This document shows, piece by piece, positions 5,996 to 36,887 of a stretch of DNA of 64,000 nucleotides; position 1 is the stretch's first letter; every line of letters starts with the position of its first letter. The notes below the pieces were generated by a model, which made no database searches, was not told the origin of the DNA, and saw nothing but the letters and a program-made list of their open reading frames with translations. This DNA comes from Campylobacterota bacterium (GTDB taxonomy: Bacteria; Campylobacterota; Campylobacteria; Campylobacterales; Thiovulaceae): positions 329,174 to 393,173 of the forward strand of contig JASKOM010000001.1 of assembly GCA_030152305.1 (NCBI GenBank). Reading direction: 5' to 3'. Both the position numbers and the translations under genes were made by a program.

Positions 5996-7276
5996 ATGGA
6001 ACGGATTTTAAATAATAAAAAAGTTCTTCTCGCTGTTACTGGAAGTATTGCGATTTATAAAAGTTTAGAATTAATTAGACTTTTGACAAAAAGCGGTGCT
6101 TCTGTTCGAGTTATTATGACTGAACATGCAAAAAAATTTATCACTCCGCTAACTTTCGAAACTCTTTCATCAAATTTAGTTTTGCATGAAAATAGCGAAA
6201 GTTGGGCTTCTGATATGAATCATATAAATATTTCACGATGGGCTGATATTTTTGTTATTGCTCCAGCAACGGCAAACACGATAAATAAATTAGCAAATGG
6301 CATCGCTGATAATATTTTATTACAAACGGCTCTAGCTTATAATCGAGAAATTATTATTTCGCCATCGGCAAATACGAACATGATTCATAATACGATTACT
6401 CAAACAAGCTTAAAATTATTGGCTTTGTCTAATTATAAAATTATCTCAACTCAAACGAAAGAACTTGCTTGTAAAACTGAAGGCGATGGTGCAATGGCTT
6501 CACCTGAAGAAATTTTTTTAAATATCGCTAGATCATTATTAAAAAAAGATTTTTGGACAAATCGTCGAGTCGTTATTACTGGAGGCGGAACAATCGAGAA
6601 AATCGATGAGGTTCGATATATTTCTAATTTTTCAAGCGGTAAAATGGGTTCAGCGATAGCAAAAGCTTTATATTTTCGTGGAGCTGATATCTGTTTTATT
6701 TCGAGTCGTTTTCCTGATAATTTGCCAAATGAAAGCTGTAAAATCGAGGTTCAATCAGCTGACGAAATGAACAAATATTTAATCGATTCGATTCGAATTG
6801 CAAAAAAAGGTTTAATTATTAAACCGAAATTAGGCGAAAACGGCGATACGAAATTAATTCAAAAAATGCCATATTTATTTATGAGTTCGGCTGTTGCTGA
6901 TTATAAACCTAAAATACAACATGATGGCAAATTAAAATCGCACCTCATCGGCAATAATTGGAATCTTGAATTAATCGAAAATATCGATATTTTAGAAAAT
7001 TTAGATAAAAACGGAATTCGAGCAATTGGCTTTAAAGCTGAAACAGATAAAAATCGCGGTTCGGAATATGCAAAAAATATGTTAATCAAAAAAGATTTAT
7101 ATGCAGTTTGTTTAAATATTCTCGAAAATAGCGAAAGTTTTGGAACAGATACGAATAAAATCGATATATTTATGCGAAACGGTTTTGAAGAAAGTTTTCC
7201 ATCGCTTTCTAAACTTGAACTTTCATTGCAAATTTTAGATTATTTGGAGGAGATCGAAAAAGATGATAAAAGATAA
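5996..7276 (+). CDS. coaBC: bifunctional phosphopantothenoylcysteine decarboxylase / phosphopantothenate-cysteine ligase
   Basis: 426 aa. N-terminal flavoprotein half (VLLAVTGSIAIYKS, APATANTINKLANGIADN) and a C-terminal CoaB half (ITGGGTIEKIDEVRYISNFSSGKMG). Confidence 0.88.
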   Translation: MERILNNKKVLLAVTGSIAIYKSLELIRLLTKSGASVRVIMTEHAKKFITPLTFETLSSNLVLHENSESWASDMNHINISRWADIFVIAPATANTINKLANGIADNILLQTALAYNREIIISPSANTNMIHNTITQTSLKLLALSNYKIISTQTKELACKTEGDGAMASPEEIFLNIARSLLKKDFWTNRRVVITGGGTIEKIDEVRYISNFSSGKMGSAIAKALYFRGADICFISSRFPDNLPNESCKIEVQSADEMNKYLIDSIRIAKKGLIIKPKLGENGDTKLIQKMPYLFMSSAVADYKPKIQHDGKLKSHLIGNNWNLELIENIDILENLDKNGIRAIGFKAETDKNRGSEYAKNMLIKKDLYAVCLNILENSESFGTDTNKIDIFMRNGFEESFPSLSKLELSLQILDYLEEIEKDDKR

Positions 7277-21838: not shown

Positions 21839-24800
21839 TTAATAATTTTTAATAAATTCAAATTTACATAAAGTTTGTAGCCAATTACCTTCTGGACTAT
21901 TTGGATATTTAGAATCTTCTTTTATAAAATAATATATTTGAGCATCAATTTCTATCTCTGAAATATAATATGCATTATTTAATAATTTGTTTATTTCTAT
22001 TTCGAATTTACCAGATAAATATGCTATTAGTTTGTTGTTATATAATAAAGAATTCCCAACAAGTTGTAATTTAGAACCTGCAAAAATCTTATTGTTTATA
22101 ATTGTAGTTTGGAATTTATGACTATGTCCTAAGTTAATACTGTTTAATCCCATATATAAAATCTTTTTCTTTGGTTCTGGACAACTTGATTGATGAGGTG
22201 AGACAAAATCATATTTCAAATTTATAAATAAAGAATCTTCAAAATTTGAAATAATTGTTAAACCTTTTTTAGCTCGAGTCATGGCTACATAATATTTTCT
22301 TCTGATTGAATCTGTATTATATTCGTTTGGTTTGATGATTGAAGCTTTGTGTTCCATTACAACTACATAATCAAATTCCCTACCTTTTGATTTATGAATT
22401 GTTGTGATAATTATTTTATGATTATTATGATTTTTATCAAAAAAATTATCATCAAGTTCATTAACAAAATTATTAAATAAGCTATAACTATATTCATTGT
22501 CAATAATAATATTTTCAAATTCTTCAATAACTTGTTTTAATTTATCAATATTTTTTGAATTTTCAAACATTTGAAAAATAGAATCTTTAGCTTTAATAAA
22601 TGTTTCTTTTGTAACTATTTGTTCATTATGTAAAATTTCCATAAATGTGTATATTTCGAGTAAATTACTCCATTCAAATCGTGGTCTATCTTGAATTAAA
22701 TGAGATTTTATTTGATGATTTGTTAAAAGAGATTGCATTGTTAAAGCTTCATCATTTGTGTTTGTTAATATAGCTATTGTTGATTCTGTATGATTTGAAA
22801 TAATTGATGAAACTTCTTGACGAACATCTGCATATAAATAAGAACATTCATCTGAAGGACTAAAAATTAATTTTGTAAAAGATTCGATTTTAGATATTTT
22901 ATCTTTTGAAACTTTTGCAGGAACTTTTAATTTTTCTGATTTTTTTCTTGTTGTAATAAAAGAAGCAAATTTATTAGCAAATTCAATTATTTTTTTAGAA
23001 CTTCTGTAATTTTCAATTAGTTCATAATTTATTTTATGTTTATTATCGTTAAGATTAAAATCTTGCCAAAAATCATCAAAAAATTTAACATTGGCTCCAG
23101 CAAAATCTAATATTAGCTGATCATCATCACCAACTGCTACAATTTTTTTAATATTTTGATATTTAACAAGATTATAAATTAAATCAAAAGCATCTTGAGA
23201 AATATCTTGAAATTCATCAAGATATAAAGCTGTGATCGGTTTTATATGTTCTTGATATTGTTGAAATTTTTGATTGAAATTTTTCAAATACAGATTTTGA
23301 ATATTTGACTCATTTTTTAATTCTTCGCCAGTTATTTTGCCAACAAAACTATGAAATGTATGAATGTCAAGATTATATGCAATTTGTCCGCCAAGCATTT
23401 TTACAAGTCGGCTTTTAAATTCATTAACTGCTGTTCTTGTGTAAGTTAACATTAAGAAATTTTCTGGTTTAACTGAAGGATCATTTTTAATAGTATGTGC
23501 TATTTTTTGAACAAGTGTATGAGTTTTTCCACTTCCAGGACCAGCTAAAACTAAAATAGAATTATCTTTACTTGTCATAATTCGTCGTTGTTCATCACTT
23601 AAATCTTTACCAAATTGACTATCTTTTGTTTGAAAATTAACAAATAATTCTTTTAAATAACTAAAATATTTATCAATAAATTCTGAAATATCCATTTTAA
23701 AATATTCAGACAATAAATTTTCTTGTTTATTAATGCTATTTTTTTCTAACATGGTTTGAAGATATTCATTCATGATATGAGTTCTTTTTCTTCGATATTC
23801 ATAATATTCATGTTTTTCTGATAAATAATCTTTTTTTAAATATTCACGATTGACTTGATTTTGTATTTCAATTTGAAATTTTTGTTTTATTGGTGAGATA
23901 ACATCAAGTAATTTAATAGCTCCAACATCTTGAAGAAGTAACAAAAAATATTCTATTGACAAATCATTAATTAAATCGAATTTGCTTTTTAAAAAAATAA
24001 TATCAATATATTTTTTATCTTTAATTTCTTCAAAAATCTCTTTGGCTATTTTGATTTTTATATGAATTCGTTCTTTAAATTCATTAAAATTTGTTGCTTC
24101 AAAAGTCCAAACAGAATATTGTTTATTTTTTCGTTTAATCGTTATAGAATTATTTTTATGAGTTTCAATCCAATCTAATAAAATAGCTTCTAAAATATTA
24201 AGAAACTTTCTTTTATCTTTAAGTTCATTAGAACTATTTACAAAATCTTTTAATCTTAATTCGCTATTTTTTTCAGCATAATTTAAAAGTTTTTCTTCTA
24301 TGTCAAAATAATATGAATGAAATTCAAGTAATTCAATTCGTGTGGTATTAAAACCAGAAATTAAATTTAACTCATATAATTTTATAAAAGCTTGATTAAT
24401 ATCATTGATTGCAAAATCAAGTGAATCATACATATTTTCTGGTTTGCCATTTTGGAGATATTTAATAACAGCAATTGCGATTTTGTCATTACCAAGAACA
24501 TCTTTTGATTCAGAGATAGTAGCCGTTGAAAAAGATTCTCCAATTGATTTAACAAGATTTGTATTTCGTTTGATTAATTTAACTCTTTCGAGTTCAGACA
24601 AAATTGTGTTAATTTTTAATTCTTGAATTTCAAATTTCTTTTGTGTTTGTATTTCCCATTTTGCCTCTTTGAGAATTTCTCTAGTTGAAGCAATAACTTG
24701 ATTATTATAAGCCAATAATTTTATAGCTTTATAAATTTGCTCAATTTCTTCAAAAGTATCAATTGATTTTTTTAATCTTGATAAATTAAAATCTAAGTCA

Positions 24801-26764
24801 TCATATTTATAAAAAGTAATTGATTGTGAAAGTTGACCGTCCCTCCCAGCTCGTCCAGATTCTTGTAAAAAATCTTCTATATTGCTTGACGGTTTATAAT
24901 GAATAACTGTTCTAATATTGGGCTTATCAATTCCCATTCCAAAAGCTGAAGTTGAAACAATCACATCAATATTATTAGCTATAAATTCACTTGAAATAGT
25001 TTCTCTGTTTTTAACTTTTGAATGAAAAGGTTTAATAATAAGATCTGTAAAATCTTTTTGAAGTTCTTTTGATATTTCGTTACATGCTGAAATACTATTT
25101 GTTATATAAATTACTGCTGGAAGATTTTTTTTATCTTTTAAAATTTCAATAGCTTTTGAATATCTTTCTTGATCGTTTTTTACATCGATAACAGAATAAT
25201 TTATATTACTTCGTTTATTTATTGCCAAATATTCATCAAAATTAGCTAAATCTTTAAAAAAATTTCTCAAATCATTTAAAATATATTTAGTTGCAGTTGC
25301 TGTAAAACAAGAAATCGGTGGTTTATAATCTAAATATTCTTTAAAGAATGTTGAGATATATCTATAATCTGGACGAAAATCTTTACCCCAAGTTGAAATA
25401 ATATGAGCTTCATCTAAAACAATTCTCGAAATATATCTTTCGTCTAATATATTTCTAATAGTTTTATATCTTAACGATTCAGGAGCTATATATAAAAGAT
25501 CGATTTTACCGTCATTAACATCTTGAATAACTTTATTTTTTTCTATTGAAGTTAAATAGCTACTTAACGATCCTGCTTTAATATTTATAAATTTTTTATT
25601 AAAACTATCGACTTGATCTTTCATTAATGCTCTAAGAGGAGAAATAATAATAGTTAAACCTTTAAAAGTTTCAGCATCATAAATTGCTGGTATTTGATAA
25701 CAAATACTTTTTCCTCCGCCAGTTGGTAAAACCGCTAAAACATCTTTTTGCTCAATACAAGCTTGAATAATATTTAATTGTGAAATATTACTTTTTCCAA
25801 TTTCTAAATTTTGAAATTCTTTAAAATTAAATTTTTGATCTGACAAATGATCTCGTGCAAAATTTAAAATATTTATTTGTTTATTAAACATAGTTTTTAT
25901 TTTTGGAAAATTCTTGAAAGTATAATTTGCTGGTCTATAATTAAAATATCTTGAAAATAAAAGTAACATTATTTCAATTGGAATTTCTTCAATTTGTGAT
26001 TCTTGAATTTCTGGAATATATTTATTAATTGTTGTTAATGCAATTTGATGATATAAATCATATTGTGTTAATCCAATATATTCTATAAAAGTTTGATAAT
26101 ATGGGCTATTATGTGCAAGATACGAAAAACTTTTTTTTATGTCTATTGGTAATTCTCTAAAAATTTCTAACTCATCTTGAAATAAATAAAAACTTTCTTC
26201 AGAATCTTTAATAGGATCGTTTTTATCGTTCTCACTATTTTTATAATATTTTTCTAACTTATGATTTTGTAAATCTCTTAAAATAATTGAAAGGTAAAGA
26301 GTATCTATATATTTTTGATTTTTAGCGAAATTACATTGTTCTTCTAATATTATTTTGTCATAATTTATAATATTATGTCCTGCTAAAATATTTGCATTTA
26401 AATAATTTTGAAATTCATTAAAAGATAATGAAATATTGCTTGGAAAAACACCTATTTTTCTTTCGTCAATATCAATAAATAATAAATTCGTTTCAAAGTA
26501 AATTAAATTTTTAATAAATTTATTAAGTTCTAATTCTGACTCTAATCCAAACATTTCACAATTTAAGCAATCAATAATTAACTCATTATTTATTAAAAAT
26601 TCTACATTCCAATCTTTTTCAAACTGAAAATATTTATTTTGTTTTAAAACCTCTAATTCAAAGAAATTTATATTTAATTTTATCTTCATCAACCACCAAA
26701 CTTTTCTCGATATTTCGATATTATAATAAAAAATAGGAAGTTTGATTATGTTTGAATCGATCAC
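21839..26764 (-). CDS. giant fusion protein: DEDD-like 3'-5' exonuclease domain + RecQ-family helicase core + UvrD/PcrA-family helicase core + unassigned C-terminal domain
   Basis: 1641 aa.
- Exonuclease-like: FIDIDE (aa 96-101), GHNIINYD (129-136).
- RecQ: LPTGGGKS (346-353), DEAH (451-454), FTATAT, SGRAGRDG (636-643).
- UvrD: AGPGSGKT (1074-1081), DEFQD (1183-1187), GDDDQ (1212-1216), NYRS (1252-1255), TIHKSKGREFD (1455-1465), YVAMTRAK (1492-1499).
The start is uncertain (Met1 at 26764 or Met26 at 26689). Confidence 0.8.
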   Translation of the reverse strand: MIDSNIIKLPIFYYNIEISRKVWWLMKIKLNINFFELEVLKQNKYFQFEKDWNVEFLINNELIIDCLNCEMFGLESELELNKFIKNLIYFETNLLFIDIDERKIGVFPSNISLSFNEFQNYLNANILAGHNIINYDKIILEEQCNFAKNQKYIDTLYLSIILRDLQNHKLEKYYKNSENDKNDPIKDSEESFYLFQDELEIFRELPIDIKKSFSYLAHNSPYYQTFIEYIGLTQYDLYHQIALTTINKYIPEIQESQIEEIPIEIMLLLFSRYFNYRPANYTFKNFPKIKTMFNKQINILNFARDHLSDQKFNFKEFQNLEIGKSNISQLNIIQACIEQKDVLAVLPTGGGKSICYQIPAIYDAETFKGLTIIISPLRALMKDQVDSFNKKFINIKAGSLSSYLTSIEKNKVIQDVNDGKIDLLYIAPESLRYKTIRNILDERYISRIVLDEAHIISTWGKDFRPDYRYISTFFKEYLDYKPPISCFTATATKYILNDLRNFFKDLANFDEYLAINKRSNINYSVIDVKNDQERYSKAIEILKDKKNLPAVIYITNSISACNEISKELQKDFTDLIIKPFHSKVKNRETISSEFIANNIDVIVSTSAFGMGIDKPNIRTVIHYKPSSNIEDFLQESGRAGRDGQLSQSITFYKYDDLDFNLSRLKKSIDTFEEIEQIYKAIKLLAYNNQVIASTREILKEAKWEIQTQKKFEIQELKINTILSELERVKLIKRNTNLVKSIGESFSTATISESKDVLGNDKIAIAVIKYLQNGKPENMYDSLDFAINDINQAFIKLYELNLISGFNTTRIELLEFHSYYFDIEEKLLNYAEKNSELRLKDFVNSSNELKDKRKFLNILEAILLDWIETHKNNSITIKRKNKQYSVWTFEATNFNEFKERIHIKIKIAKEIFEEIKDKKYIDIIFLKSKFDLINDLSIEYFLLLLQDVGAIKLLDVISPIKQKFQIEIQNQVNREYLKKDYLSEKHEYYEYRRKRTHIMNEYLQTMLEKNSINKQENLLSEYFKMDISEFIDKYFSYLKELFVNFQTKDSQFGKDLSDEQRRIMTSKDNSILVLAGPGSGKTHTLVQKIAHTIKNDPSVKPENFLMLTYTRTAVNEFKSRLVKMLGGQIAYNLDIHTFHSFVGKITGEELKNESNIQNLYLKNFNQKFQQYQEHIKPITALYLDEFQDISQDAFDLIYNLVKYQNIKKIVAVGDDDQLILDFAGANVKFFDDFWQDFNLNDNKHKINYELIENYRSSKKIIEFANKFASFITTRKKSEKLKVPAKVSKDKISKIESFTKLIFSPSDECSYLYADVRQEVSSIISNHTESTIAILTNTNDEALTMQSLLTNHQIKSHLIQDRPRFEWSNLLEIYTFMEILHNEQIVTKETFIKAKDSIFQMFENSKNIDKLKQVIEEFENIIIDNEYSYSLFNNFVNELDDNFFDKNHNNHKIIITTIHKSKGREFDYVVVMEHKASIIKPNEYNTDSIRRKYYVAMTRAKKGLTIISNFEDSLFINLKYDFVSPHQSSCPEPKKKILYMGLNSINLGHSHKFQTTIINNKIFAGSKLQLVGNSLLYNNKLIAYLSGKFEIEINKLLNNAYYISEIEIDAQIYYFIKEDSKYPNSPEGNWLQTLCKFEFIKNY

Positions 26765-28874: not shown

Positions 28875-30461
28875 TTATCTCTTATTTTTAGCAAAATGTT
28901 TATTGACAAAATATTGTTGAGAAATCGAAAATAGATTATTAACAAACCAATAAAGAGTCAAACCTGCTGGAAATGTTATAAAGAAAAATGTAAAAATAAG
29001 TGGTAAAAACTTAAATATTTTTTCTTGCATTGGATCAGTAAAATTTGTTGGAGTTATATATTGTTGCCAAAACATCGTTCCACCCATAAGAATTGGAAGA
29101 ATAAAATATGGATCCATTTTTGCTAAATCTTCAATCCAGAATATCCAGCCTTCACCTTGAAGTTCAACGGCATTTAATAAAACTCGATAAATTGCAAAGA
29201 AAATTGGAATCTGTAATAAAATTGGCAAACAACCACCCATAGGATTCGCACCATTTTTCGAATAAAGTTCCATCATTTTTACTTGAAGTTGTTGCGGATT
29301 ATCTTTATATTTTCGTTGGATTTCTTTCATATCTGGAGCTAAATCTTTTAATTTTTGCATTGAAACCATACCTTTGTGAGTCAAAGGATATAAAACAAAT
29401 CTAATTAAAATTGTTAAAACAACGATAGCCCAACCCCAGTTTCCAAATAACGAATGAAGCCAATTTAGAACTAAAAATATAGGTTTTGCAATCATCGTAA
29501 TTAAGCCGTATTCAATTGCAGAAGTTAAATCTTCATTTAATGTTTTTAAAACTTTGTGATCTTTTGGACCAATATAACCACTAAATTTAAGATTATCTAA
29601 ACCTTCTAAATAAATAGTTGGGTTTTTATTTGAATCAGCTTCGACAATTGCATTTATATTTTTATCGATGTTATAAAACATAGAAGCATAATATCTATCA
29701 AATGATGAAACAAAAGTTAAATTTCTAAAAATTGAGCTACCTACAACATCGCCGTCTTCAAAAATTGTGCTTTCTTCGGCAACTCGAATCATTCCACCTT
29801 GAACAACAAAACCGTATTCACTTGCTTCTGGTCTCATTCCATTCGATACAAAAAATCGTTTTGGTTTAGAAACAGAAATTTCAATATCATAATTGCCAAT
29901 TGGATAAAAAGTTAATTTTTTTGTTACGACGATTCCGTCAGATAAATTTTGAGTTAAAATTAATTCTTCTTTTGATGAGTTTGAGATATTTATCTCATTT
30001 CGATTTGTGTTATACGAAGTTGAAAAAGCCTCTGAATTAAGTTTTGCATCTTCGAATCTAATTTCTAACGGTTTTGGTGAACCAGCGGAAACAGAAACTA
30101 ATTGAGCTTGAATTCCTGAACTATTTTTATGTTTTTCATCTAATAATATTTTTGATGAGATTCGACCAAACTTATCGATTGTCATCGAAGCATCAGATCC
30201 ATATTTAATCGAAACAAGAGCTTCTTCTTGTTTAGTTTGAGTTGTTGGTGATGAGGTCATTGCTGACGAAACAGTCGGAGCAGAATTAATATTCTCTTGT
30301 GTTTTATTTTCAGAACTATTTTGAATATTTAAATTGGAGCTATTTTGTTCTAAAGTTTTAATATTTTTAGGTGGAAAAACAGCTGAATAGCCAATAAAAA
30401 ATAAAATAGATATAGCAGTCGCAAGGAGTAATCGCTGTTGAGCAGACATTTTTTCTAACAT
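28875..30461 (-). CDS. yidC: membrane protein insertase YidC
   Basis: 528 aa. N-terminal TM, a large periplasmic domain, and the conserved C-terminal core (GWAIVVLTILIRFVLYPL...GGCLPILLQIPIFFAIY...LYWFVNNLFSI). Confidence 0.92.
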   Translation of the reverse strand: MLEKMSAQQRLLLATAISILFFIGYSAVFPPKNIKTLEQNSSNLNIQNSSENKTQENINSAPTVSSAMTSSPTTQTKQEEALVSIKYGSDASMTIDKFGRISSKILLDEKHKNSSGIQAQLVSVSAGSPKPLEIRFEDAKLNSEAFSTSYNTNRNEINISNSSKEELILTQNLSDGIVVTKKLTFYPIGNYDIEISVSKPKRFFVSNGMRPEASEYGFVVQGGMIRVAEESTIFEDGDVVGSSIFRNLTFVSSFDRYYASMFYNIDKNINAIVEADSNKNPTIYLEGLDNLKFSGYIGPKDHKVLKTLNEDLTSAIEYGLITMIAKPIFLVLNWLHSLFGNWGWAIVVLTILIRFVLYPLTHKGMVSMQKLKDLAPDMKEIQRKYKDNPQQLQVKMMELYSKNGANPMGGCLPILLQIPIFFAIYRVLLNAVELQGEGWIFWIEDLAKMDPYFILPILMGGTMFWQQYITPTNFTDPMQEKIFKFLPLIFTFFFITFPAGLTLYWFVNNLFSISQQYFVNKHFAKNKR

Positions 30462-31657: not shown

Positions 31658-33016
31658 ATGCCATATGCCTATAAAAGATATGTCATGTATATTTTTGCAA
31701 CTTTAATTGCATTAACTATGCCGTTTATTACGATAGACGGTAATCACTTTTTTTTATTAAACTTTGATCAAAAGCAGTTACATTTGCTATTTACAAAGTT
31801 TGATATGCAAGAACTTTATCTTATGCCATTTTTATTAATTATGCTGTTTTTAGGCATTTTTTTAACAACGGTTATGGGTGGTCGAGTTTTTTGTGGTTGG
31901 GCTTGTCCGCAAACTATTTTTCGAGTTGTTTTTCGTGACCTCATCGAAACAAAGATTTTACGACTTCGACGATCAATAAAAAATAAACAAAAAGAACCAG
32001 ATTATTCGCTAACAATAAATAAAATTAAAAAAGCTGTTGCAATATTAATTTGGACTGTTTTAGCATTAATTGCGGCTTCAGATTTTGCTTGGTATTTTGT
32101 TCCGCCAGAAACATTTTTTGAATATTTGAAAGATCCAATGGAACATACAATATTATTTGGTTTCGTCGGAATTTTGACTCTGTTTTTAGTTTATGATGTT
32201 ATTTGGCTAAAAGAAAATTTCTGTGTTTATATTTGTCCTTATTCAAGAGTTCAATCTGTTTTATATGACAACGAAACTATTATGGCAATTTATGATAAAA
32301 CTCGAGGCGGTGAAATTTATAATAGCTCAAAAGAAAAAATAGCTAATAAACAAAAAGAGCTTCCAGCTGGTTCAGAATGCACAACCTGTGAAAGCTGTGT
32401 TACAGTTTGTCCAACTCATATTGATATTCGAAAAGGGTTACAACTTGAATGTATAAATTGTCTCGAATGTGTTGATGCTTGTACGACAGTTATGGGAAAA
32501 TTAAATAAACCGACTCTTGTTAATTGGTCAAGTGTAAAAGAAATCGATGATAAAACAGGCAAAACTCAATATTTTAGACCTAAAACAATTGGCTATATTG
32601 CAATCATGATTTTAATGCTCTTTATTTTAATCAAAATGGGTTCAGAAAAAGAACATATGCTTTTAAATATAAATAAAGAAACTCGCTTATATTCGATTGA
32701 AGAAAATAACAGAGTAACAAATAGCTATATTTTCTTGTTCCAAAATACTGACCATGTCGATCACGAATATTATTTCAAGGTTGATAACGAAAGTATAAAA
32801 ATTAAAACTCCGACTCAACCTTTTACAATTAAAGCTGGACATAGCCTGAAAAAAATTGTTGTTTTATATACTGATGAGGTTCTCGGAATTGACGATCGAA
32901 AAGATATTACGATACCAATTCACATAAATGCCTATGCAACAGATTCAGAAGAAAAAATAAAAGTTCAACGAGAAGCTATTTTCGTTTATCCTAAAACTAC
33001 TTCTACTATAAAATAA
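31658..33016 (+). CDS. ccoG: cytochrome c oxidase accessory protein CcoG (FixG-type 4Fe-4S protein)
   Basis: 452 aa. Contains CGWACPQT, a ferredoxin-type CTTCESCVTVCP and CINCLECVDAC, and TM segments. Confidence 0.8.
   Translation: MPYAYKRYVMYIFATLIALTMPFITIDGNHFFLLNFDQKQLHLLFTKFDMQELYLMPFLLIMLFLGIFLTTVMGGRVFCGWACPQTIFRVVFRDLIETKILRLRRSIKNKQKEPDYSLTINKIKKAVAILIWTVLALIAASDFAWYFVPPETFFEYLKDPMEHTILFGFVGILTLFLVYDVIWLKENFCVYICPYSRVQSVLYDNETIMAIYDKTRGGEIYNSSKEKIANKQKELPAGSECTTCESCVTVCPTHIDIRKGLQLECINCLECVDACTTVMGKLNKPTLVNWSSVKEIDDKTGKTQYFRPKTIGYIAIMILMLFILIKMGSEKEHMLLNINKETRLYSIEENNRVTNSYIFLFQNTDHVDHEYYFKVDNESIKIKTPTQPFTIKAGHSLKKIVVLYTDEVLGIDDRKDITIPIHINAYATDSEEKIKVQREAIFVYPKTTSTIK
32938..32998. 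repeat. 61-bp direct repeat, copy A (functional 3' end of ccoG)
   Basis: aacagattcagaagaaaaaataaaagttcaacgagaagctattttcgtttatcctaaaact matches 36169-36229 at 60/61 positions. Confidence 0.9.
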
Positions 33017-33025
33017 TTTTTTATA

Positions 33026-33054
33026 CTCTCCAAATTTAATTGTAATTTGGAGAG
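33026..33054. terminator. bidirectional rho-independent terminator between convergent genes
   Basis: A perfect 11-bp stem, CTCTCCAAATT (33026-33036) with AATTTGGAGAG (33044-33054), around a 7-nt loop. T-run downstream on the plus strand and A-run upstream. Confidence 0.75.
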
Positions 33055-33071
33055 TTGTAATTTTTTTGAGA

Positions 33072-35306
33072 TTAATTTGTAGGTGTATTGATTGTTTTGC
33101 TAACAAATGAATAAGTTATTTCTAATTTATCACCGCTTGTTAATTTTCTGCCAACTATAATAATTGAATTACTACTTTCTTCATATTTCCAGCCATTTGT
33201 TTCACTCATATTTATAATAGAACCGTTTAGTTTAACTGAAATAGTTGATACAACAACAGAATCTTTATCTAATTTTATGCCGATTGTGTCTCCAGAAATA
33301 CCAGAAGCGATTTTTGACATAATATCTTTAAAGTCTAAGTGACCTTTAGGATCTCTATTATTTATATTGCCAACAAAACCGCCAGTTGCATCTGCTAAAT
33401 CATCATATTGACCTGGATTGAACCAAATGTTACCATTATCATCAGTAGAAACAACAACATGAACTTTCCAATTATTTTTAACAAAAATATTATTTTTTGG
33501 ATCAAATTCAATGCCTCCAGATCGATCAGTATATTGACTTGGTTCATCACTAATTATAATAATACTCATTTGAGATTTATCATCGATGCCAAATGTTTCT
33601 CTAGCCAAACCACCAACAGACAGCGAATATTCGGAGTTATAAATTCCTGTTTCTATTCCGCTACCGCAAATACCAACAATACTTTTTTCTTTTAACAATT
33701 CAAGATCGTTAATAATACCTGAATTAATTAAAACATTATTAGCTGTATCATTAGAATAATAATAACCATAAGAACTATACCCGTTATTTGATGACAAAGA
33801 ATTATTTTTTATTCCATCACCAGTTGTGATAATTCCAGCTCTAAAACCTAGATTTGCTTTTTCGAATTCTGTTCCAAAATCAGAAATTGCTTGTTTAACA
33901 GCATCTTGATCATCACTCATACTTCCAGAATCATCAATAACAAAAAGAACATTTGCATTGAGTTTAGTTCCATTTGATTCAAAATATTGTGAATGATTTA
34001 AAATATTATATTCTTTCTGTTGGAAGTTATTACATGATGTAATCGTTTTCATTTTTCCAGCAAATTCGCTGTAAAGCGAGTTATCGACAACAGAAACAGA
34101 GGCAAATATTTTACCATTTACTTCAGTGACAACTATTCTAGCTTTAAAAAAATCAGCAAGAGTTGTTGTATTAGAATTAATCGTAATATTTGATGTTCCT
34201 AGAATAATTTTTAATATGTCATTTAAAACGATTTTTGCATCTGTTTTTTCTTGATTTAAAATAGTTATTTCCGTAGCAATCGAACTATCGCAATTATTTG
34301 ACTTTTGAGTGGAAACTTCAGAAACTTTACCATTAGAAGCATTTTTAATATCTTTACTGATACTATCAGCAATATTTTCAACTGAATCATTAGATTCTAA
34401 TTTAATAACTGCCGAAGGTAAATTTGGAGTTTCGATTACAACAAGATTGTCGTTAATTTGTTTAACAGGAATTTCTGGAGCAACAATAAAAGATACCTCA
34501 TCAGAAATAGATGTTTTAGCAATAGGTTTTTTATTAAATCCAGAATTACAAGATAATTGATACCATGACTCATTAATATCATCTCCATTTTTAGTTGACC
34601 CTATTTTTTGGGAAAATATAGTTTTATTACCTCCATTTGGACAACTTGTATTACCTACAGGTAAAGAAATATTATATTCAACAATATTTCCTAAATCACT
34701 ATTTTTTGAATAAGTTACATATGAATTACATTCTTTATTAGTCCAACGATCTATTTCAATATTATCAATTGTTTTAATATATTCTATTGATTTACCACCG
34801 TAAAAACATTGTGAATCACCTTTAGCAAGTGTTGAAACAGTTGATGAAATTACAGGAGTTAAACCTTTGTTAATTGCAATAGATTCAGCTGTGTTGCAAA
34901 TATGATTTCTATCAACAGATAAATTATGTTCTCCTGCAAATAAGCCAACACTTTTTACAGTAATTACTTTTGTTCCACCTAATTTACAAACAGGATCACC
35001 TACCGCAATAGTTTCATTAAATTCATTTGAGAATTCTTGATAATTATTTATTGTTAAATATTCAATATAACTTAAGCATTTTGTATTTTTTATTAAAGAA
35101 CCATCGACTAATGAGATATTATATTCTCCTCCGTATGAACAAATCGATGAATTAGAATCACTAATTATATAATTACCTGTTGAACAATCGACACAAGGAC
35201 AAGAATTACTTGTATAGCTATATGCTAAATCTCCATCAGCATAAGAAACAACATTATTGTAAGTTTTACAAATTGAGCCATTGGAATCTGTATATGTGCC
35301 TACCAA
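33072..35306 (-). CDS. Cys-rich repeat / von Willebrand factor A domain surface protein
   Basis: 744 aa from the first TTG. The MIDAS-like VLFVIDDSGSMSDD lies in the C-terminal half and the N-terminal half has Cys-containing repeats. There is no signal peptide or SD at the TTG. The frame is actually open up to 35495, overlapping the end of the upstream ORF. Confidence 0.6.
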   Translation of the reverse strand: MVGTYTDSNGSICKTYNNVVSYADGDLAYSYTSNSCPCVDCSTGNYIISDSNSSICSYGGEYNISLVDGSLIKNTKCLSYIEYLTINNYQEFSNEFNETIAVGDPVCKLGGTKVITVKSVGLFAGEHNLSVDRNHICNTAESIAINKGLTPVISSTVSTLAKGDSQCFYGGKSIEYIKTIDNIEIDRWTNKECNSYVTYSKNSDLGNIVEYNISLPVGNTSCPNGGNKTIFSQKIGSTKNGDDINESWYQLSCNSGFNKKPIAKTSISDEVSFIVAPEIPVKQINDNLVVIETPNLPSAVIKLESNDSVENIADSISKDIKNASNGKVSEVSTQKSNNCDSSIATEITILNQEKTDAKIVLNDILKIILGTSNITINSNTTTLADFFKARIVVTEVNGKIFASVSVVDNSLYSEFAGKMKTITSCNNFQQKEYNILNHSQYFESNGTKLNANVLFVIDDSGSMSDDQDAVKQAISDFGTEFEKANLGFRAGIITTGDGIKNNSLSSNNGYSSYGYYYSNDTANNVLINSGIINDLELLKEKSIVGICGSGIETGIYNSEYSLSVGGLARETFGIDDKSQMSIIIISDEPSQYTDRSGGIEFDPKNNIFVKNNWKVHVVVSTDDNGNIWFNPGQYDDLADATGGFVGNINNRDPKGHLDFKDIMSKIASGISGDTIGIKLDKDSVVVSTISVKLNGSIINMSETNGWKYEESSNSIIIVGRKLTSGDKLEITYSFVSKTINTPTN

Positions 35307-35470
35307 AATATTTTGTTCATTTAAACCACATAAAGTCGTATTTGTTTCACTGTCAAAAATAGAATCAATAAATTTTTTAGTTGAAGTAATTTTTCCACCA
35401 TTAATACAAACTGGGTTATTTACTAAAAGTAATTTTGTTGAATTATATTCTTCGATTGGTTCATAAATGT

Positions 35471-36073
35471 CTATTTTATAGTTGATTCGGATCCATTATT
35501 GAGCAACCAATATGCTGAACCTCGTTCAATATATGAAACAGATCTTTGATAACTTGTTTTCATTAAATTATTTAGTGAGCTTTTATTACTGTAAGCTCCC
35601 CAACTTTGTGTAGCATTATCAAAAGTCCAAATAATTTCAATATTATTTTTTGAACCAAAAGTTTTTATTAAATCAATCTTTGAGTTTCCAGCAGACAATA
35701 AATTCCAATTTTTTGCAATTTGAATTTGATTGTTTGAAGCAGATGAGTTTGATAAGTTAATTTCGATATTTGAATTTCCATTATTGTTAATCCAAAAACC
35801 ACTATTACTTTGAACATGTGAAACAGATGTTAGATTACTATCTATGATTTTTTGTTTTGAAGATGAGTTATTGCCATAAGCATTCCACTTGCCATTATAA
35901 TATGTCCAAACATATGAAATATCTTGATATTGAGAAAATGTGCTTGAAAGATCAATTGAAGAATCGCCAGAACCTAAAAGATTCCAACCTTTATAAACAG
36001 TTACCGAGCCTTGCATAACTGTAGCTATCAATAAAGGAGAAGAAACTAACAGAGCTAATTTGTTTTTGCTCAT
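35471..36073 (-). CDS. exported protein with two ~80-aa internal repeats
   Basis: Start at ATG 36073 (AGGAA 8 nt upstream) gives MSKNKLALLVSSPLLIATVMQG, a signal peptide. Repeats: YKGWNLLGSGDSSIDLSSTF...GFWINNNG and AKNWNLLSAGNSKIDLIKTF...AYWLLNNG. Confidence 0.6.
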   Translation of the reverse strand: MSKNKLALLVSSPLLIATVMQGSVTVYKGWNLLGSGDSSIDLSSTFSQYQDISYVWTYYNGKWNAYGNNSSSKQKIIDSNLTSVSHVQSNSGFWINNNGNSNIEINLSNSSASNNQIQIAKNWNLLSAGNSKIDLIKTFGSKNNIEIIWTFDNATQSWGAYSNKSSLNNLMKTSYQRSVSYIERGSAYWLLNNGSESTIK

Positions 36074-36168
36074 ATAATAATTCCTATAAAATAAATTAAA
36101 GTATAAAAACTTTGCTAAAAATCTTAACATAATTATTACTATTTATCAAGATAATATTAAAAATATTT

Positions 36169-36229
36169 AACAGATTCAGAAGAAAAAATAAAAGTTCAAC
36201 GAGAAGCTATTTTCGTTTATCCAAAAACT
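36169..36229. repeat. 61-bp direct repeat, copy B (orphan copy of the ccoG 3' end)
   Basis: 60/61 identical to 32938-32998 (mismatch 36223 a versus 32992 t). It would read ...TDSEEKIKVQREAIFVYPKT followed by GNK-stop. Confidence 0.9.
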
Positions 36230-36350
36230 GGGAATAAATAATTAATTTATCTTGAATTTTTTAAAAAAAGATGTAATAATCACAAGACAATCACTCTTTA
36301 ATAAATAAGCAATTAAAGAGTTTTAAAATATATTTTTAGGAACAAATCAC

Positions 36351-36887
36351 ATGCTAGAAGCAATTATTAGAGAAAGTATTGGTAAAAAAGCTACAAAAGC
36401 TTTAAGACAAGATGGTTATCTAATTGGAAACATTTACGGTAAAGGTCTACAAAATTTATATGTAGCATTCAAAATGAATGATTATATTAGAGCAGTTAAA
36501 TCAAAAGAAACAATCGCTTTTGATATTAAAGTTGGTAACGAAGTTTTAAAAGTTGTTGTTCAAGATTATCAAAGCGAACCTGTAACAGGAAAACTTCTTC
36601 ATGTTGATTTAATGGTCGCTCAAGCTGATGTAGTCGCTGTTTATCATGTTCCTGTTAAAACAGTTGGAACACCTGTTGGTTTAAAAAATAAAGGTGTTAT
36701 GATTGTTTCTACAAACAGAGTTCCAGTAAAAACTAGCATCGAAAAACTTCCAAATAATATTACTATTGATGTTTCAAATGTTGATGTAGGCAGTGCTATT
36801 CTTGTTCGAGATCTTCCAGAAAGACAAACTTTAGATATTCGACTTTCTGATAGAGTTGCAATCTTAAGTATGATTAAAGCAAACTAA
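36351..36887 (+). CDS. rplY: 50S ribosomal protein L25/general stress protein Ctc
   Basis: 178 aa. RESIGKKATKALRQDGYLIGNIYGKG...LLHVDL pattern. Located upstream of pth as in many bacteria. Confidence 0.85.
   Translation: MLEAIIRESIGKKATKALRQDGYLIGNIYGKGLQNLYVAFKMNDYIRAVKSKETIAFDIKVGNEVLKVVVQDYQSEPVTGKLLHVDLMVAQADVVAVYHVPVKTVGTPVGLKNKGVMIVSTNRVPVKTSIEKLPNNITIDVSNVDVGSAILVRDLPERQTLDIRLSDRVAILSMIKAN

Follow-up and report, generated by a model that had tools for sequence, protein, structure and literature searches.

Genomic islands and prophages that are inserted by an integrase at the 3' ends of tRNA or protein-coding genes are bounded by direct repeats, attL and attR, that keep the target intact. 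The minimal mobile elements of Neisseria are cassettes that replace one another, via transformation and a homologous double crossover in the conserved genes on either side, and leave no duplication of the target. The cag island of Helicobacter pylori reportedly lies at the 3' end of glr/murI between 31-bp direct repeats (work credited to Censini 1996 and Akopyants 1998), and the insertion with long target duplication of restriction-modification (R-M) gene units is said to have been described by Nobusato et al. 2000 (Gene 259:99). In the survey of Furuta, Abe and Kobayashi (2010, NAR 38:2428), insertions of the latter type were less than 20 kb, lay between unique direct repeats above 30 bp in length, themselves copies of the target, and were devoid of integrase and transposase (PMC2853133). 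The repeats often overlap the 3' end of a gene, and the mode is known from H. pylori, Campylobacter, Neisseria and Haemophilus, mostly competent species and above all epsilon-proteobacteria (PMC2853133). The search set of this survey required R and M homologues in the insert, and DNA breakage encoded by the cargo was proposed as the common cause of the R-M insertions (PMC2853133).

The locus described here lies in the window, that is, the whole stretch of 64,000 nucleotides that was analyzed, from a sulfur bacterium of the Thiovulum type, and was compared to each of these systems. With regard to the survey of R-M insertions, its repeat is longer than 30 bp (61 bp with 60 of 61 identical, or 66 bp with 63 of 66), its insert of 3,170 bp is below 20 kb, no mobility gene was detected within the insert or next to it, and the repeat does not belong to a multi-copy element. 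By contrast, the cargo is not an R and M pair, a criterion that defined the search set and not the mechanism. Since the cargo is a resident surface-protein gene and not an R-M system, breakage encoded by the cargo cannot be the driver. The density is also unusual for this mode, with at least 7 cases in 2 Mb of a genome that has lost nearly all synteny and yielded no tyrosine recombinase. The cag island appears to be a fair analogue in that both are integrase-less, both are associated with a short direct duplication of the end of an intact housekeeping gene, and both occur in the same class of bacteria; however, the likeness would not extend to content, as cag comprises some 40 kb of foreign DNA with the genes of a secretion system compared to 3.2 kb and one native gene at ccoG. 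Like the integrase-mediated islands, the segment has a direct repeat that duplicates the 3' end of its target and leaves the gene intact, but it differs from them: the cargo lacks an integrase and is not foreign in composition, the genome yielded no tyrosine recombinase, and the repeat has no core in common with those of similar loci. An integrase-borne genomic island was rejected on these grounds: no recombinase in the segment, no match to PF00589 in this genome (G000), its sister species (G001) or the relatives G002 to G004, and cargo that is not foreign. Minimal mobile elements resemble the segment in that small cassettes between housekeeping genes turn over without a recombinase in a host that is probably competent, whereas the flanks at ccoG show no conservation among relatives and there is a duplication.

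The direct repeat and its surroundings

The features of the locus are given by position in the window, strand and description.

31658 to 33016, + strand: ccoG, FixG-type cytochrome oxidase accessory protein, 452 aa, intact (Pfam)
32938 to 32998, + strand: left repeat copy, inside ccoG; reaches 32933 with two mismatches
32999 to 33016, + strand: present ccoG tail TSTIK and TAA, the first 18 nt past the repeat
33025 to 33055, no strand assigned: 12-bp hairpin terminator that separates ccoG from the convergent cargo gene, the sole terminator-like site in the region
33072 to 35495, - strand: C-terminal part of the cargo, 800 codons, with Cys-rich repeats, a possible vWA/MIDAS domain and a C-terminal domain
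35471 to 36073, - strand: N-terminal part of the cargo, 200 codons, with a signal peptide and a W/Y-rich module
35474 to 35477, - strand: frameshift site, an A4 run (T-run on the + strand) where the two frames overlap
36074 to 36168, - strand: upstream (promoter) region of the cargo and end of the segment, with promoter-like sites at 36160-36100
36169 to 36229, + strand: right repeat copy, orphan, 60 of 61; reaches 36164 with two mismatches
36230 to 36241, + strand: orphan tail GNK and TAA, directly after the right copy
36293 to 36321, + strand: weak 10-bp hairpin rich in A/U, with a U-run after it, located past the orphan and ahead of rplY (predicted by folding only)
36351 to 36887, + strand: rplY (L25/Ctc), first gene of rplY-pth-lptF (L25 domains)

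Alignment of the two copies revealed identity at 60 of 61 bases, as the earlier note had reported, and the lone mismatch (CCT vs CCA, a synonymous Pro codon) was found 7 nt from the right edge, linked to the two tails. The match lengthens to 66 nt from 32933 and 36164 with two further mismatches (63 of 66), and at the repeat edge identity falls sharply from 98% to noise. No comparable match was obtained in 100 dinucleotide shuffles of the window. Exactly two copies were detected in the whole 2.01-Mb genome; therefore, the repeat is not dispersed, and membership of the orphan in a dispersed family, which the earlier note had raised against its own reading, was ruled out. The coding context of both copies was also as claimed: the left copy ends in the codons ..TDSEEKIKVQREAIFVYPKT of ccoG followed by TSTIK-stop, and the right copy, which reads ..PKT-GNK-stop, is an orphan because a stop lies three codons upstream and there is no start codon. 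Other fragments of ccoG were not found in the genome, nor was a known RNA family within or near the repeat or an inverted repeat that pairs the two ends of the segment.

The ccoG product matched Fer4_18 (3.7e-47) and FixG_C (6e-16) in Pfam and was 88% identical to CcoG of the sister species. Both tails at the locus are ccoG-like, with 3-5 codons ending in Lys-stop. The ccoG tail of G001 is TTHK*, which is equal in length to the GNK orphan tail and has the last 8 nt in common with it (ATAAATAA). Comparison of TSTIK, GNK and TTHK* favored neither tail as ancestral, and TSTIK may be either insert-derived or native. Downstream sequences at seven loci of similar design (see below), when aligned to those of orthologues, scored no higher than shuffles with the exception of the coding tail of proA. 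The hairpin at 36293-36321, which was not called by a scan for consensus terminators, may be the former ccoG terminator.

The genes that neighbor the segment are rpmH, ccoG, rplY and pth. An arrangement of ccoG beside rplY was found in 0 of 30 relatives, and the genus-level context is GAF/SpoIIE-ccoG-DUF3972-acnB; therefore, ccoG has changed neighbors on both sides. In this genome ccoG, DUF3972, acnB and the GAF/SpoIIE block are spread over four contigs. Universal presence of the arrangement, which had been named as a finding that would speak against an insertion, was not observed, as relatives do not share it. With 54 nt of the repeat as the query, an exact search of 185,579 species genomes returned 0 matches, and a cluster look-up for a conspecific genome returned none (CcoG, L25 and both cargo ORFs were singletons at 90% identity among 15 billion proteins). 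The closest CcoG homologues among 5.8 billion proteins were at most 87-88% identical and resided on contigs with the G001-type context. An empty-site allele of the ccoG-rplY locus was not found in public genomes and relatives.

The gene between the copies

The two copies are separated by 3,170 bp (32999-36168) and one gene. The earlier note had described two genes here, for a Cys-rich/vWA protein of at least 744 aa and for a signal-peptide repeat protein, and this is where its account had to be corrected. The two ORFs are parts of one gene split by a frameshift of 1 nt at the A4 run, directly ahead of the TAG at which the N-terminal ORF stops, and the C-terminal frame is open to about 35495 with no start codon before TTG at 35306. 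In the sister species a single ORF for a secreted protein of 1,015 aa spans both, with the N-terminal ORF aligned to residues 2-205 (55% identity) and the C-terminal ORF to residues 201-1011 (67% identity). The W/Y-rich module is common to at least 9 other large proteins of the genome, and the sequence at 36106-36157 aligned weakly to the region upstream of the G001 orthologue.

Two labels of the earlier note have to be qualified. The cargo carries a DDSGS motif that resembles the DxSxS of MIDAS sites; the Pfam match to VWA_2 was sub-threshold (18.8-19.3 bits vs a cut-off of 27) and covered the first 50 profile positions only. The 'strong bidirectional terminator' is a hairpin with folds of -17.3 and -15.4 kcal/mol (z of -4.5 and -6.4) and is followed by a T-run on the + strand, whereas the tail on the - strand is A-rich with a short U-run, so that 'bidirectional' is supported in part only.

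The cargo has a GC content of 27.7% compared to 28-29% for the window and the genome, holds one copy of the over-represented 8-mer of the genome, and at 67% identity to its orthologue falls within the interquartile range (62-85%) of 1,332 orthologue pairs. The orthologue resides in a different genomic context in G001. By its native composition and divergence, therefore, the segment is a relocated resident transcription unit and not a foreign islet. The reading as foreign accessory DNA carrying surface-protein genes was rejected accordingly; the segment is one resident gene of the genus with its promoter and a terminator, found elsewhere in the sister genome. A Pfam search of all ORFs detected no recombinase, transposase or other mobility gene within the segment, in agreement with what had been noticed before. 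A transposon or insertion sequence was likewise rejected, as the segment is without terminal inverted repeats and transposase and the duplication is 61 bp.

Recurrence of the design and the gatA polymorphism

The local low-copy repeats of this genome were examined for the design of a gene 3' end with a direct intergenic orphan. By this approach, 7 of 24 were found to have it compared to 2.4% expected (P about 1e-6). Two of the cases counted concern the ends of type IIG restriction genes, for which an exchange of domains or cassettes may be the explanation instead. Among the other repeats one was at a 5' end and none was inverted. The search for further duplicated gene 3' ends that the earlier note had advised was thus productive: besides ccoG, the cases are at era, proA, hemD, a gene for a 193-aa lipoprotein-like protein, a type IIG restriction gene and one more gene, and the sister genome has two further cases, at kpsF and gatA. 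The islet at the hemD end is located in the window (21792/27404) and shares its architecture with ccoG, as had been stated. The design is regular in that repeats are always direct, the cargo is 1-6 kb, and the orphan is always downstream of the intact gene.

Cargoes of the islets include KilA-N, TerB, M78 peptidase, C5 methylase, Bro-N, MBOAT, helicase, lipoproteins and an ApaLI-like R and M pair, and an integrase, transposase or recombinase was detected in none of ten islets. The repeats are 41 to 317 bp long at positions of -18 to +82 relative to the stop codon, and a shared end motif or common core was not found among the ten islets. Thus, the proposal of a recurrent integration route holds for the recurrence, with 7 of 24 repeats here and 2 cases in the sister, and not for a site-specific system, as no tyrosine recombinase was found and the repeats vary in length and position. 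In the proA islet it is the intact copy that has the native tail, and unrelated sequence comes after the orphan, which would not be expected from a simple duplication of the target without later trimming of the orphan. A dispersed REP-like element was observed near a few islets and is absent at the ccoG islet.

At gatA, three strains with 99% identical GatA, obtained from a protein collection, have gatA adjoining an MqnA-like gene with a single 144-bp copy (empty site), and G001 and one further strain have a 1,790-bp R-M insert between two 144-bp copies. This insert, an ApaLI-like R and M pair, begins 13 nt ahead of the R gene, has its other end within the M gene, and shows no sign of a former gatA context. 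The empty-site polymorphism proves insertion of this design at gatA, and all features used by Furuta et al. 2010 are present, the empty site included. A metagenome scan with GatA of G001 gave a best match of 76% identity only, and the sole contig examined for an empty site at kpsF ends inside the repeat.

The search for recombinase families took in this genome and five relatives from its family, and tyrosine recombinase was not found here or in four of the five: PF00589 had 0 matches in G000 (98% complete), the complete G001, and G002-G004. The same profile gave 1-8 matches in each of the 14 other families of the order, except one represented by an 83%-complete genome. Use of Xer-like proteins of relatives in tblastn gave no match. 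The look for recombinases elsewhere in the genome, suggested by the earlier note, thus returned none of the tyrosine type and one borderline resolvase (PF00239), an ORF at G000:C5:14708-14953 outside the segment, together with one rve domain, one TnpB-like gene and no DDE_Tnp_1. The 1,252 orthologues of G000 and G001 fall into 553 synteny blocks with a mean of 2.3 genes, and the genome holds about 1,200 copies of an uptake-signal-like 8-mer, an abundance that may hint at natural competence.

Origin of the segment

We consider it probable that a resident surface-protein unit was relocated by insertion with long target duplication and without a site-specific recombinase. A promoter, a secreted surface-protein gene of about 1,000 codons and a terminator would have been inserted 15 nt upstream of the ccoG stop codon, presumably at a former ccoG-rplY junction, and 61 bp (up to 66) of the target would have been copied onto both sides. 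The left copy would have stayed joined to the body of ccoG and kept its function with a tail altered by a few codons, and the right copy would be a non-coding relic before rplY. As to the route, the likeliest may be that the recombination or repair systems of the host used a fragment derived from a further copy of the genome or from a transformed relative, possibly by template switching or by end joining in which the target is re-entered before the point of exit, or possibly by a RecA crossover of a looped fragment carrying the ccoG end. The bias for 3' ends appears to be best explained by selection, because only such insertions leave the target gene intact.

A smaller but appreciable share of the probability goes to Campbell-type homologous integration, in which a fragment of a related strain with the surface gene downstream of ccoG was circularized or looped and entered by RecA via the 61 bp, so that the two repeat copies and two tails are the donor and recipient alleles. 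The resemblance of both tails to ccoG tails (including TTHK* of G001), the sole mismatch with its linkage to the tails, and the drop of identity at the repeat edge are all consistent with this scenario, and the 8-mers hint at competence. It requires, however, two non-ancestral orders, ccoG-surface gene and ccoG-rplY, in two conspecific strains of a species with no second genome known; 61 bp is short as a RecA substrate, and the proven gatA insert has no trace of a former gatA context. It is unlikely, and somewhat more so than the Campbell-type event, that nothing came from outside and that the repeat is a rearrangement scar, in which, as the genome was shuffled gene by gene, local transposition or duplication-deletion displaced ccoG or the gene next to it and left 61 or more nt of ccoG, or a short piece of ccoG served as templated filler in a repair junction. 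A scar agrees with the native cargo gene, the 553 synteny blocks, the spread of the former ccoG neighborhood over four contigs and the novel sequence on either side of the proA orphan; the regular design (direct, 1-6 kb, orphan downstream), the clean insertion at gatA and the finding of no other ccoG fragment in the genome argue against it.

Integrase islands classically leave a duplicated 3' end by which the target gene is regenerated, and the 61 bp could be read as attL/attR of a decayed island with its tyrosine or serine integrase lost or acting in trans; the genome does have the one borderline resolvase-like ORF. This is very improbable and already largely refuted: no tyrosine recombinase was found in G000-G004, 0 of 10 islets carry a recombinase, the cargo is exactly one gene of native composition, and repeats differ in length (41-317 bp) and position (-18 to +82) with cargo ends that have no sequence in common. 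Least credible is an assembly artefact, that is, a true ccoG-rplY junction with one copy and a separate 3.2-kb circle or the path of a second strain. The assembly graph admits such a resolution and the homopolymer frameshift could be a sequencing error, but the repeat is shorter than ordinary reads and its two copies can be told apart by a mismatch, the locus lies in the interior of a contig of 424 kb, and the design recurs with other repeat lengths both here and in the single-contig sister genome, where independent assemblies from other samples confirm it.

For the preferred reading, relocation of a resident unit with long target duplication, the cargo is of particular interest. The footprint has so far been documented almost only for R-M genes, whereas the gene that it encloses here is a resident one for a surface protein, and at other sites of this genome the enclosed genes include those of the lipoprotein, acyltransferase, helicase and antirepressor kinds. 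Cargoes other than R-M and the finding of no tyrosine recombinase in the lineage argue that host recombination or repair makes these insertions, and that they can relocate ordinary genes. A bolder extension, which we regard as rather doubtful, is that such insertion, rather than being an occasional feat of R-M genes, is the general host-driven movement of any transcription unit, native or foreign, and hence the engine of synteny loss in Thiovulum and its kin, with fresh 3'-end orphans as the youngest footprints. Movement of this kind may run on DNA taken up via the 8-mer or on recombination among the many genome copies of a giant cell. The gatA polymorphism is a clean and datable example in an uncultured genus, and together with the extreme loss of synteny it provides a good natural data set for the mechanism. 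For annotation, short orphan gene ends are to be read as marks of recent gene movement.

Direct repeat at ccoG and the enclosed segment

Self-comparison of the window revealed that positions 32938-32998, at the 3' end of ccoG, and 36169-36229, upstream of rplY, are the same at 60 of 61 positions, which bears out the earlier note's claim of a 61-bp direct repeat duplicating the end of this gene. The sole mismatch exchanges one proline codon for another (CCT vs CCA), and the repeat reaches 66 nt, from 32933 and 36164, if two more mismatches are allowed. When the window was shuffled 100 times with dinucleotide content preserved, no such match arose. The left copy encodes ccoG residues ..TDSEEKIKVQREAIFVYPKT, after which ccoG closes with the five codons TSTIK and TAA. 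Beyond the right (orphan) copy, which is separated from rplY by 121 nt, come GNK and TAA. This copy is non-coding, as it lacks a start codon and an in-frame stop precedes it by three codons. Exactly two copies were detected in the whole assembly (2,010,811 bp, 13 contigs) of the genome carrying the window (G000; window at G000:C5:329174-393173, where C-numbers denote contigs). Thus, the orphan does not belong to a dispersed repeat family unrelated to ccoG, a possibility that the note itself had raised.

Features of the ccoG-rplY interval (window positions)
31658-33016, + strand: ccoG, with Fer4_18 and FixG_C domain matches
33025-33055, T-run on + strand: 12-bp hairpin, 8 nt past the ccoG stop
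33072-35306, - strand: second cargo ORF; its frame continues to about 35495, with no start codon in the extension
35471-36073, - strand: N-terminal cargo ORF, 200 aa, signal peptide
36074-36168, about 95 nt: upstream region of the cargo gene, with promoter-like sites
36351-36887: rplY, Pfam match

The segment between the copies (the cargo, 32999-36168) had been described as two genes, for a Cys-rich/vWA protein and a signal-peptide repeat protein, a description that was not upheld. In the sister species G001, a single 1,015-aa ORF spans both cargo ORFs, with residues 2-205 matching the first frame at 55% identity and residues 201-1011 matching the second at 67%, and the frame switch was located at an A4 run immediately before TAG (35471-35495). 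Thus, the cargo is a single gene that is interrupted, in reality or through mis-sequencing, by one base in this homopolymer; the frameshift may reflect a true pseudogene, a slippery site or an error in sequencing. In the downstream frame, about 60 codons pass before any ATG, GTG or TTG. The 'vWA' label is weak: VWA_2 reaches 18.8-19.3 bits where 27 is the cut-off, and the match covers 50 profile positions, a DDSGS motif among them. At least nine further large proteins encoded by the genome share the N-terminal module of the cargo protein. The region upstream of the gene (36074-36168) aligns weakly with that of the G001 orthologue. Based on the promoter-like sites, the one gene and the hairpin, the segment amounts to one complete transcription unit.

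Recurrence of 3'-end duplications and polymorphism at gatA

When G000 was compared to itself for local (0.6-20 kb apart), low-copy repeat pairs of 35-450 nt, 24 pairs were detected, all 24 direct. Seven pairs join an intact gene 3' end to an intergenic orphan, an arrangement expected at about 2.4% from the genome share of such positions; the binomial P is about 1e-6. A gene 5' end is involved in one pair. The search for duplicated gene 3' ends advised in the earlier note thus returned seven cases, ccoG included, and these, with two islets (repeat-flanked inserts) in G001, support its suggestion of a recurrent route in the lineage.

Islets and look-alikes, by target gene and repeat length
G000: era, 188 nt
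G000: proA, 41 nt
G000: hemD-like gene (first islet of the window, 21792/27404), 59-64 nt
G000: ccoG, 61 nt
G000: 193-aa lipoprotein-like gene, 101 nt
G000: type IIG restriction gene, 317 nt
G000: 258-aa gene on contig C8, 74 nt
G000, look-alike outside the filter: gltB, 95 nt
G000, look-alike outside the filter: second type IIG gene, 70 nt
G001: kpsF, 151 nt
G001: gatA, 144 nt

The right repeat edge falls from 18 nt before to 82 nt after the stop codon, and cargo sizes are 1-6 kb. Cargo includes two tandem lipoprotein genes; KilA-N, TerB and CxxCxxCC proteins; an M78 peptidase; a 1,641-aa helicase with a coiled-coil protein; a C5 methylase with a KilA-N protein; Bro-N and AntA antirepressors; an MBOAT acyltransferase; a DnaJ-Lcl protein; and an ApaLI-like endonuclease with an N4/N6 methylase. 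Neither an integrase or transposase in any cargo examined nor a motif common to the cargo ends was found. The helicase gene (21839-26764) terminates within its own orphan repeat. Contig C5 (21% of the genome) holds five of the seven islets. A dispersed, roughly 40-nt element whose end is palindromic (GTCATCCCGAAGCGATAGCTCCTGTAATCCATTTCGGGATCT and variants) and which resembles REP or miniature mobile elements is present at G000:C10:120764-120805, C7:67987-68027, C10:133184-133224 and other sites; it adjoins several islets (193-aa gene, type IIG genes) but not that of ccoG.

Proof of the insertion mode within the genus was provided by gatA of G001, behind which a strain-polymorphic ApaLI-like restriction-modification pair is found (G001:C1:214648-216726). 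Relatives of G001 GatA with 99% identity were detected on contigs of three other samples (NCBI assembly, JGI metagenome, Logan run), in which a convergent MqnA-like gene lies 88 nt past gatA; in a fourth sample, an ApaLI-like gene follows gatA as in G001. The empty allele matches both G001 repeat copies over its positions 547-690 (97.5-97.9% identity) and lacks the 1,790 bp between these copies. The 144-bp duplication comprises the last 92 nt of gatA and 52 nt with its terminator. The gatA islet displays every feature that Furuta, Abe and Kobayashi (2010) set out for 'insertion with long target duplication' (PMC2853133). The last seven codons and stop of the islet methylase lie inside the duplicated target.

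Origin of the cargo and gene order around ccoG

The GC content of the cargo (27.7%) was compared to that of the window (28.2%) and genome (29.3%). The 8-mer GATGAGGT / ACCTCATC, over-represented in the genome (1,205 copies, 0.6 per kb), occurs in the window at 30250, 31938, 32873, 34495, 37229 and 38229, with one copy of GATGAGGT in the cargo; another lies within ccoG, 58 nt before the left copy of the repeat. The 67% identity between the cargo and its G001 orthologue is inside the interquartile range (62-85%, median 75%) of 1,332 orthologue pairs, and the cargo gene and the G001 1,015-aa gene are reciprocal best matches. Based on native GC, typical divergence and reciprocal best match, foreign DNA was rejected as the origin of the cargo. 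The G001 orthologue has unrelated neighbours on both sides.

Among about 15 billion proteins clustered at 90% identity, CcoG, L25 and both cargo ORFs were singletons. Exact matching against prokaryotic genomes, with one per species, gave no hit for the ccoG locus, and ccoG was within 1.5 kb of rplY in 0 of 30 relatives; no empty-site allele at ccoG-rplY was found among relatives, species genomes or protein clusters. In G001, the closest available genome (same genus, one 1.72-Mb contig, complete), as well as on a metagenome contig from a G001-like strain, the gene order is mnmA-motA-GAF/SpoIIE-(127 aa)-ccoG-DUF3972-acnB, and these neighbours sit on contigs C7, C1 and C10 in G000. The two genomes (median protein identity 75%) are shuffled almost gene by gene, with 1,252 orthologues in 553 collinear blocks (mean 2.3 genes, median 1) and 56% of gene adjacencies kept. 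Other genera of the family have no ccoG or rplY neighbours in common with G000.

Interpretation of the ccoG islet and mobility genes

Based on its likeness to the gatA islet in anatomy and repeat identity, the shared genus and the at least seven cases in the genome, we favour, somewhat cautiously, the ccoG islet as another insertion with long target duplication. This mode has been documented for restriction-modification genes of H. pylori, Campylobacter, Neisseria, Haemophilus and others, mostly competent species, and was tentatively attributed to DNA breakage by cargo enzymes (PMC2853133). By contrast, the ccoG cargo is a resident, non-restriction gene. A pure rearrangement scar would fit the heavily scrambled genome, yet we regard it as improbable. 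Assembly artefact is unlikely, as the 61-bp repeat is below ordinary read length and carries a copy-specific mismatch, the locus is internal to a 424-kb contig and the islet design recurs in independent sister-species assemblies. An integrase island at the ccoG 3' end is very unlikely, since the cargo is native, the repeats vary among islets and no tyrosine recombinase was detected in G000 or four of the five family relatives searched.

Under long target duplication, insertion would have occurred in the last codons of ccoG, which would now carry a different tail. The 3'-end preference is most simply a survivorship effect, because a long duplication spanning a gene end keeps one intact copy and one confined to the gene interior destroys the gene. 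The duplication could arise by template switching or end joining with re-entry into the target at a point upstream of where it was left, by RecA crossover with a looped fragment bearing the ccoG end, or as a longer duplication trimmed later. The proA islet, where the native tail (IRN*; G001 has IRI*) stands after the intact copy and unrelated sequence adjoins the orphan downstream, warns against the simplest duplication model; comparison of the ccoG tails, TSTIK vs GNK, gives no polarity.

Of the recombinases that the earlier note proposed to seek elsewhere in the genome, none of the tyrosine type was detected; one borderline resolvase-like ORF was present. The Pfam model PF00589 gave no match in G000 (98% complete), complete G001 or G002-G004, and thus no Xer-type dimer resolvase was found there; the fifth relative (G005) gave only a 30-bit fragment. 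Control genomes matched in 14 of 14 cases, and 14 other families of the order had 1-8 matches each, except one 83%-complete genome. Three Xer-like proteins from related families, used as tblastn queries, returned nothing in G000 or G001. DDE_Tnp_1 was not detected in G000, where the remaining mobility genes are one rve-domain ORF and one TnpB-like gene (479 aa). The 3' end of the latter, the only such gene of the genome, has a 176-nt, 91% identical intergenic copy on another contig (G000:C3:32842-33017 and C9:161573-161748), possibly another right end of an IS605-type element or its guide-RNA region. Two copies of a 92-nt repeat that ends in GTCCCTTATAGGGATTGAAAT and looks like a CRISPR leader with the first repeat flank three or four unannotated genes at a spacing of 5.5 kb (G000:C13:657-748 and 6128-6219).
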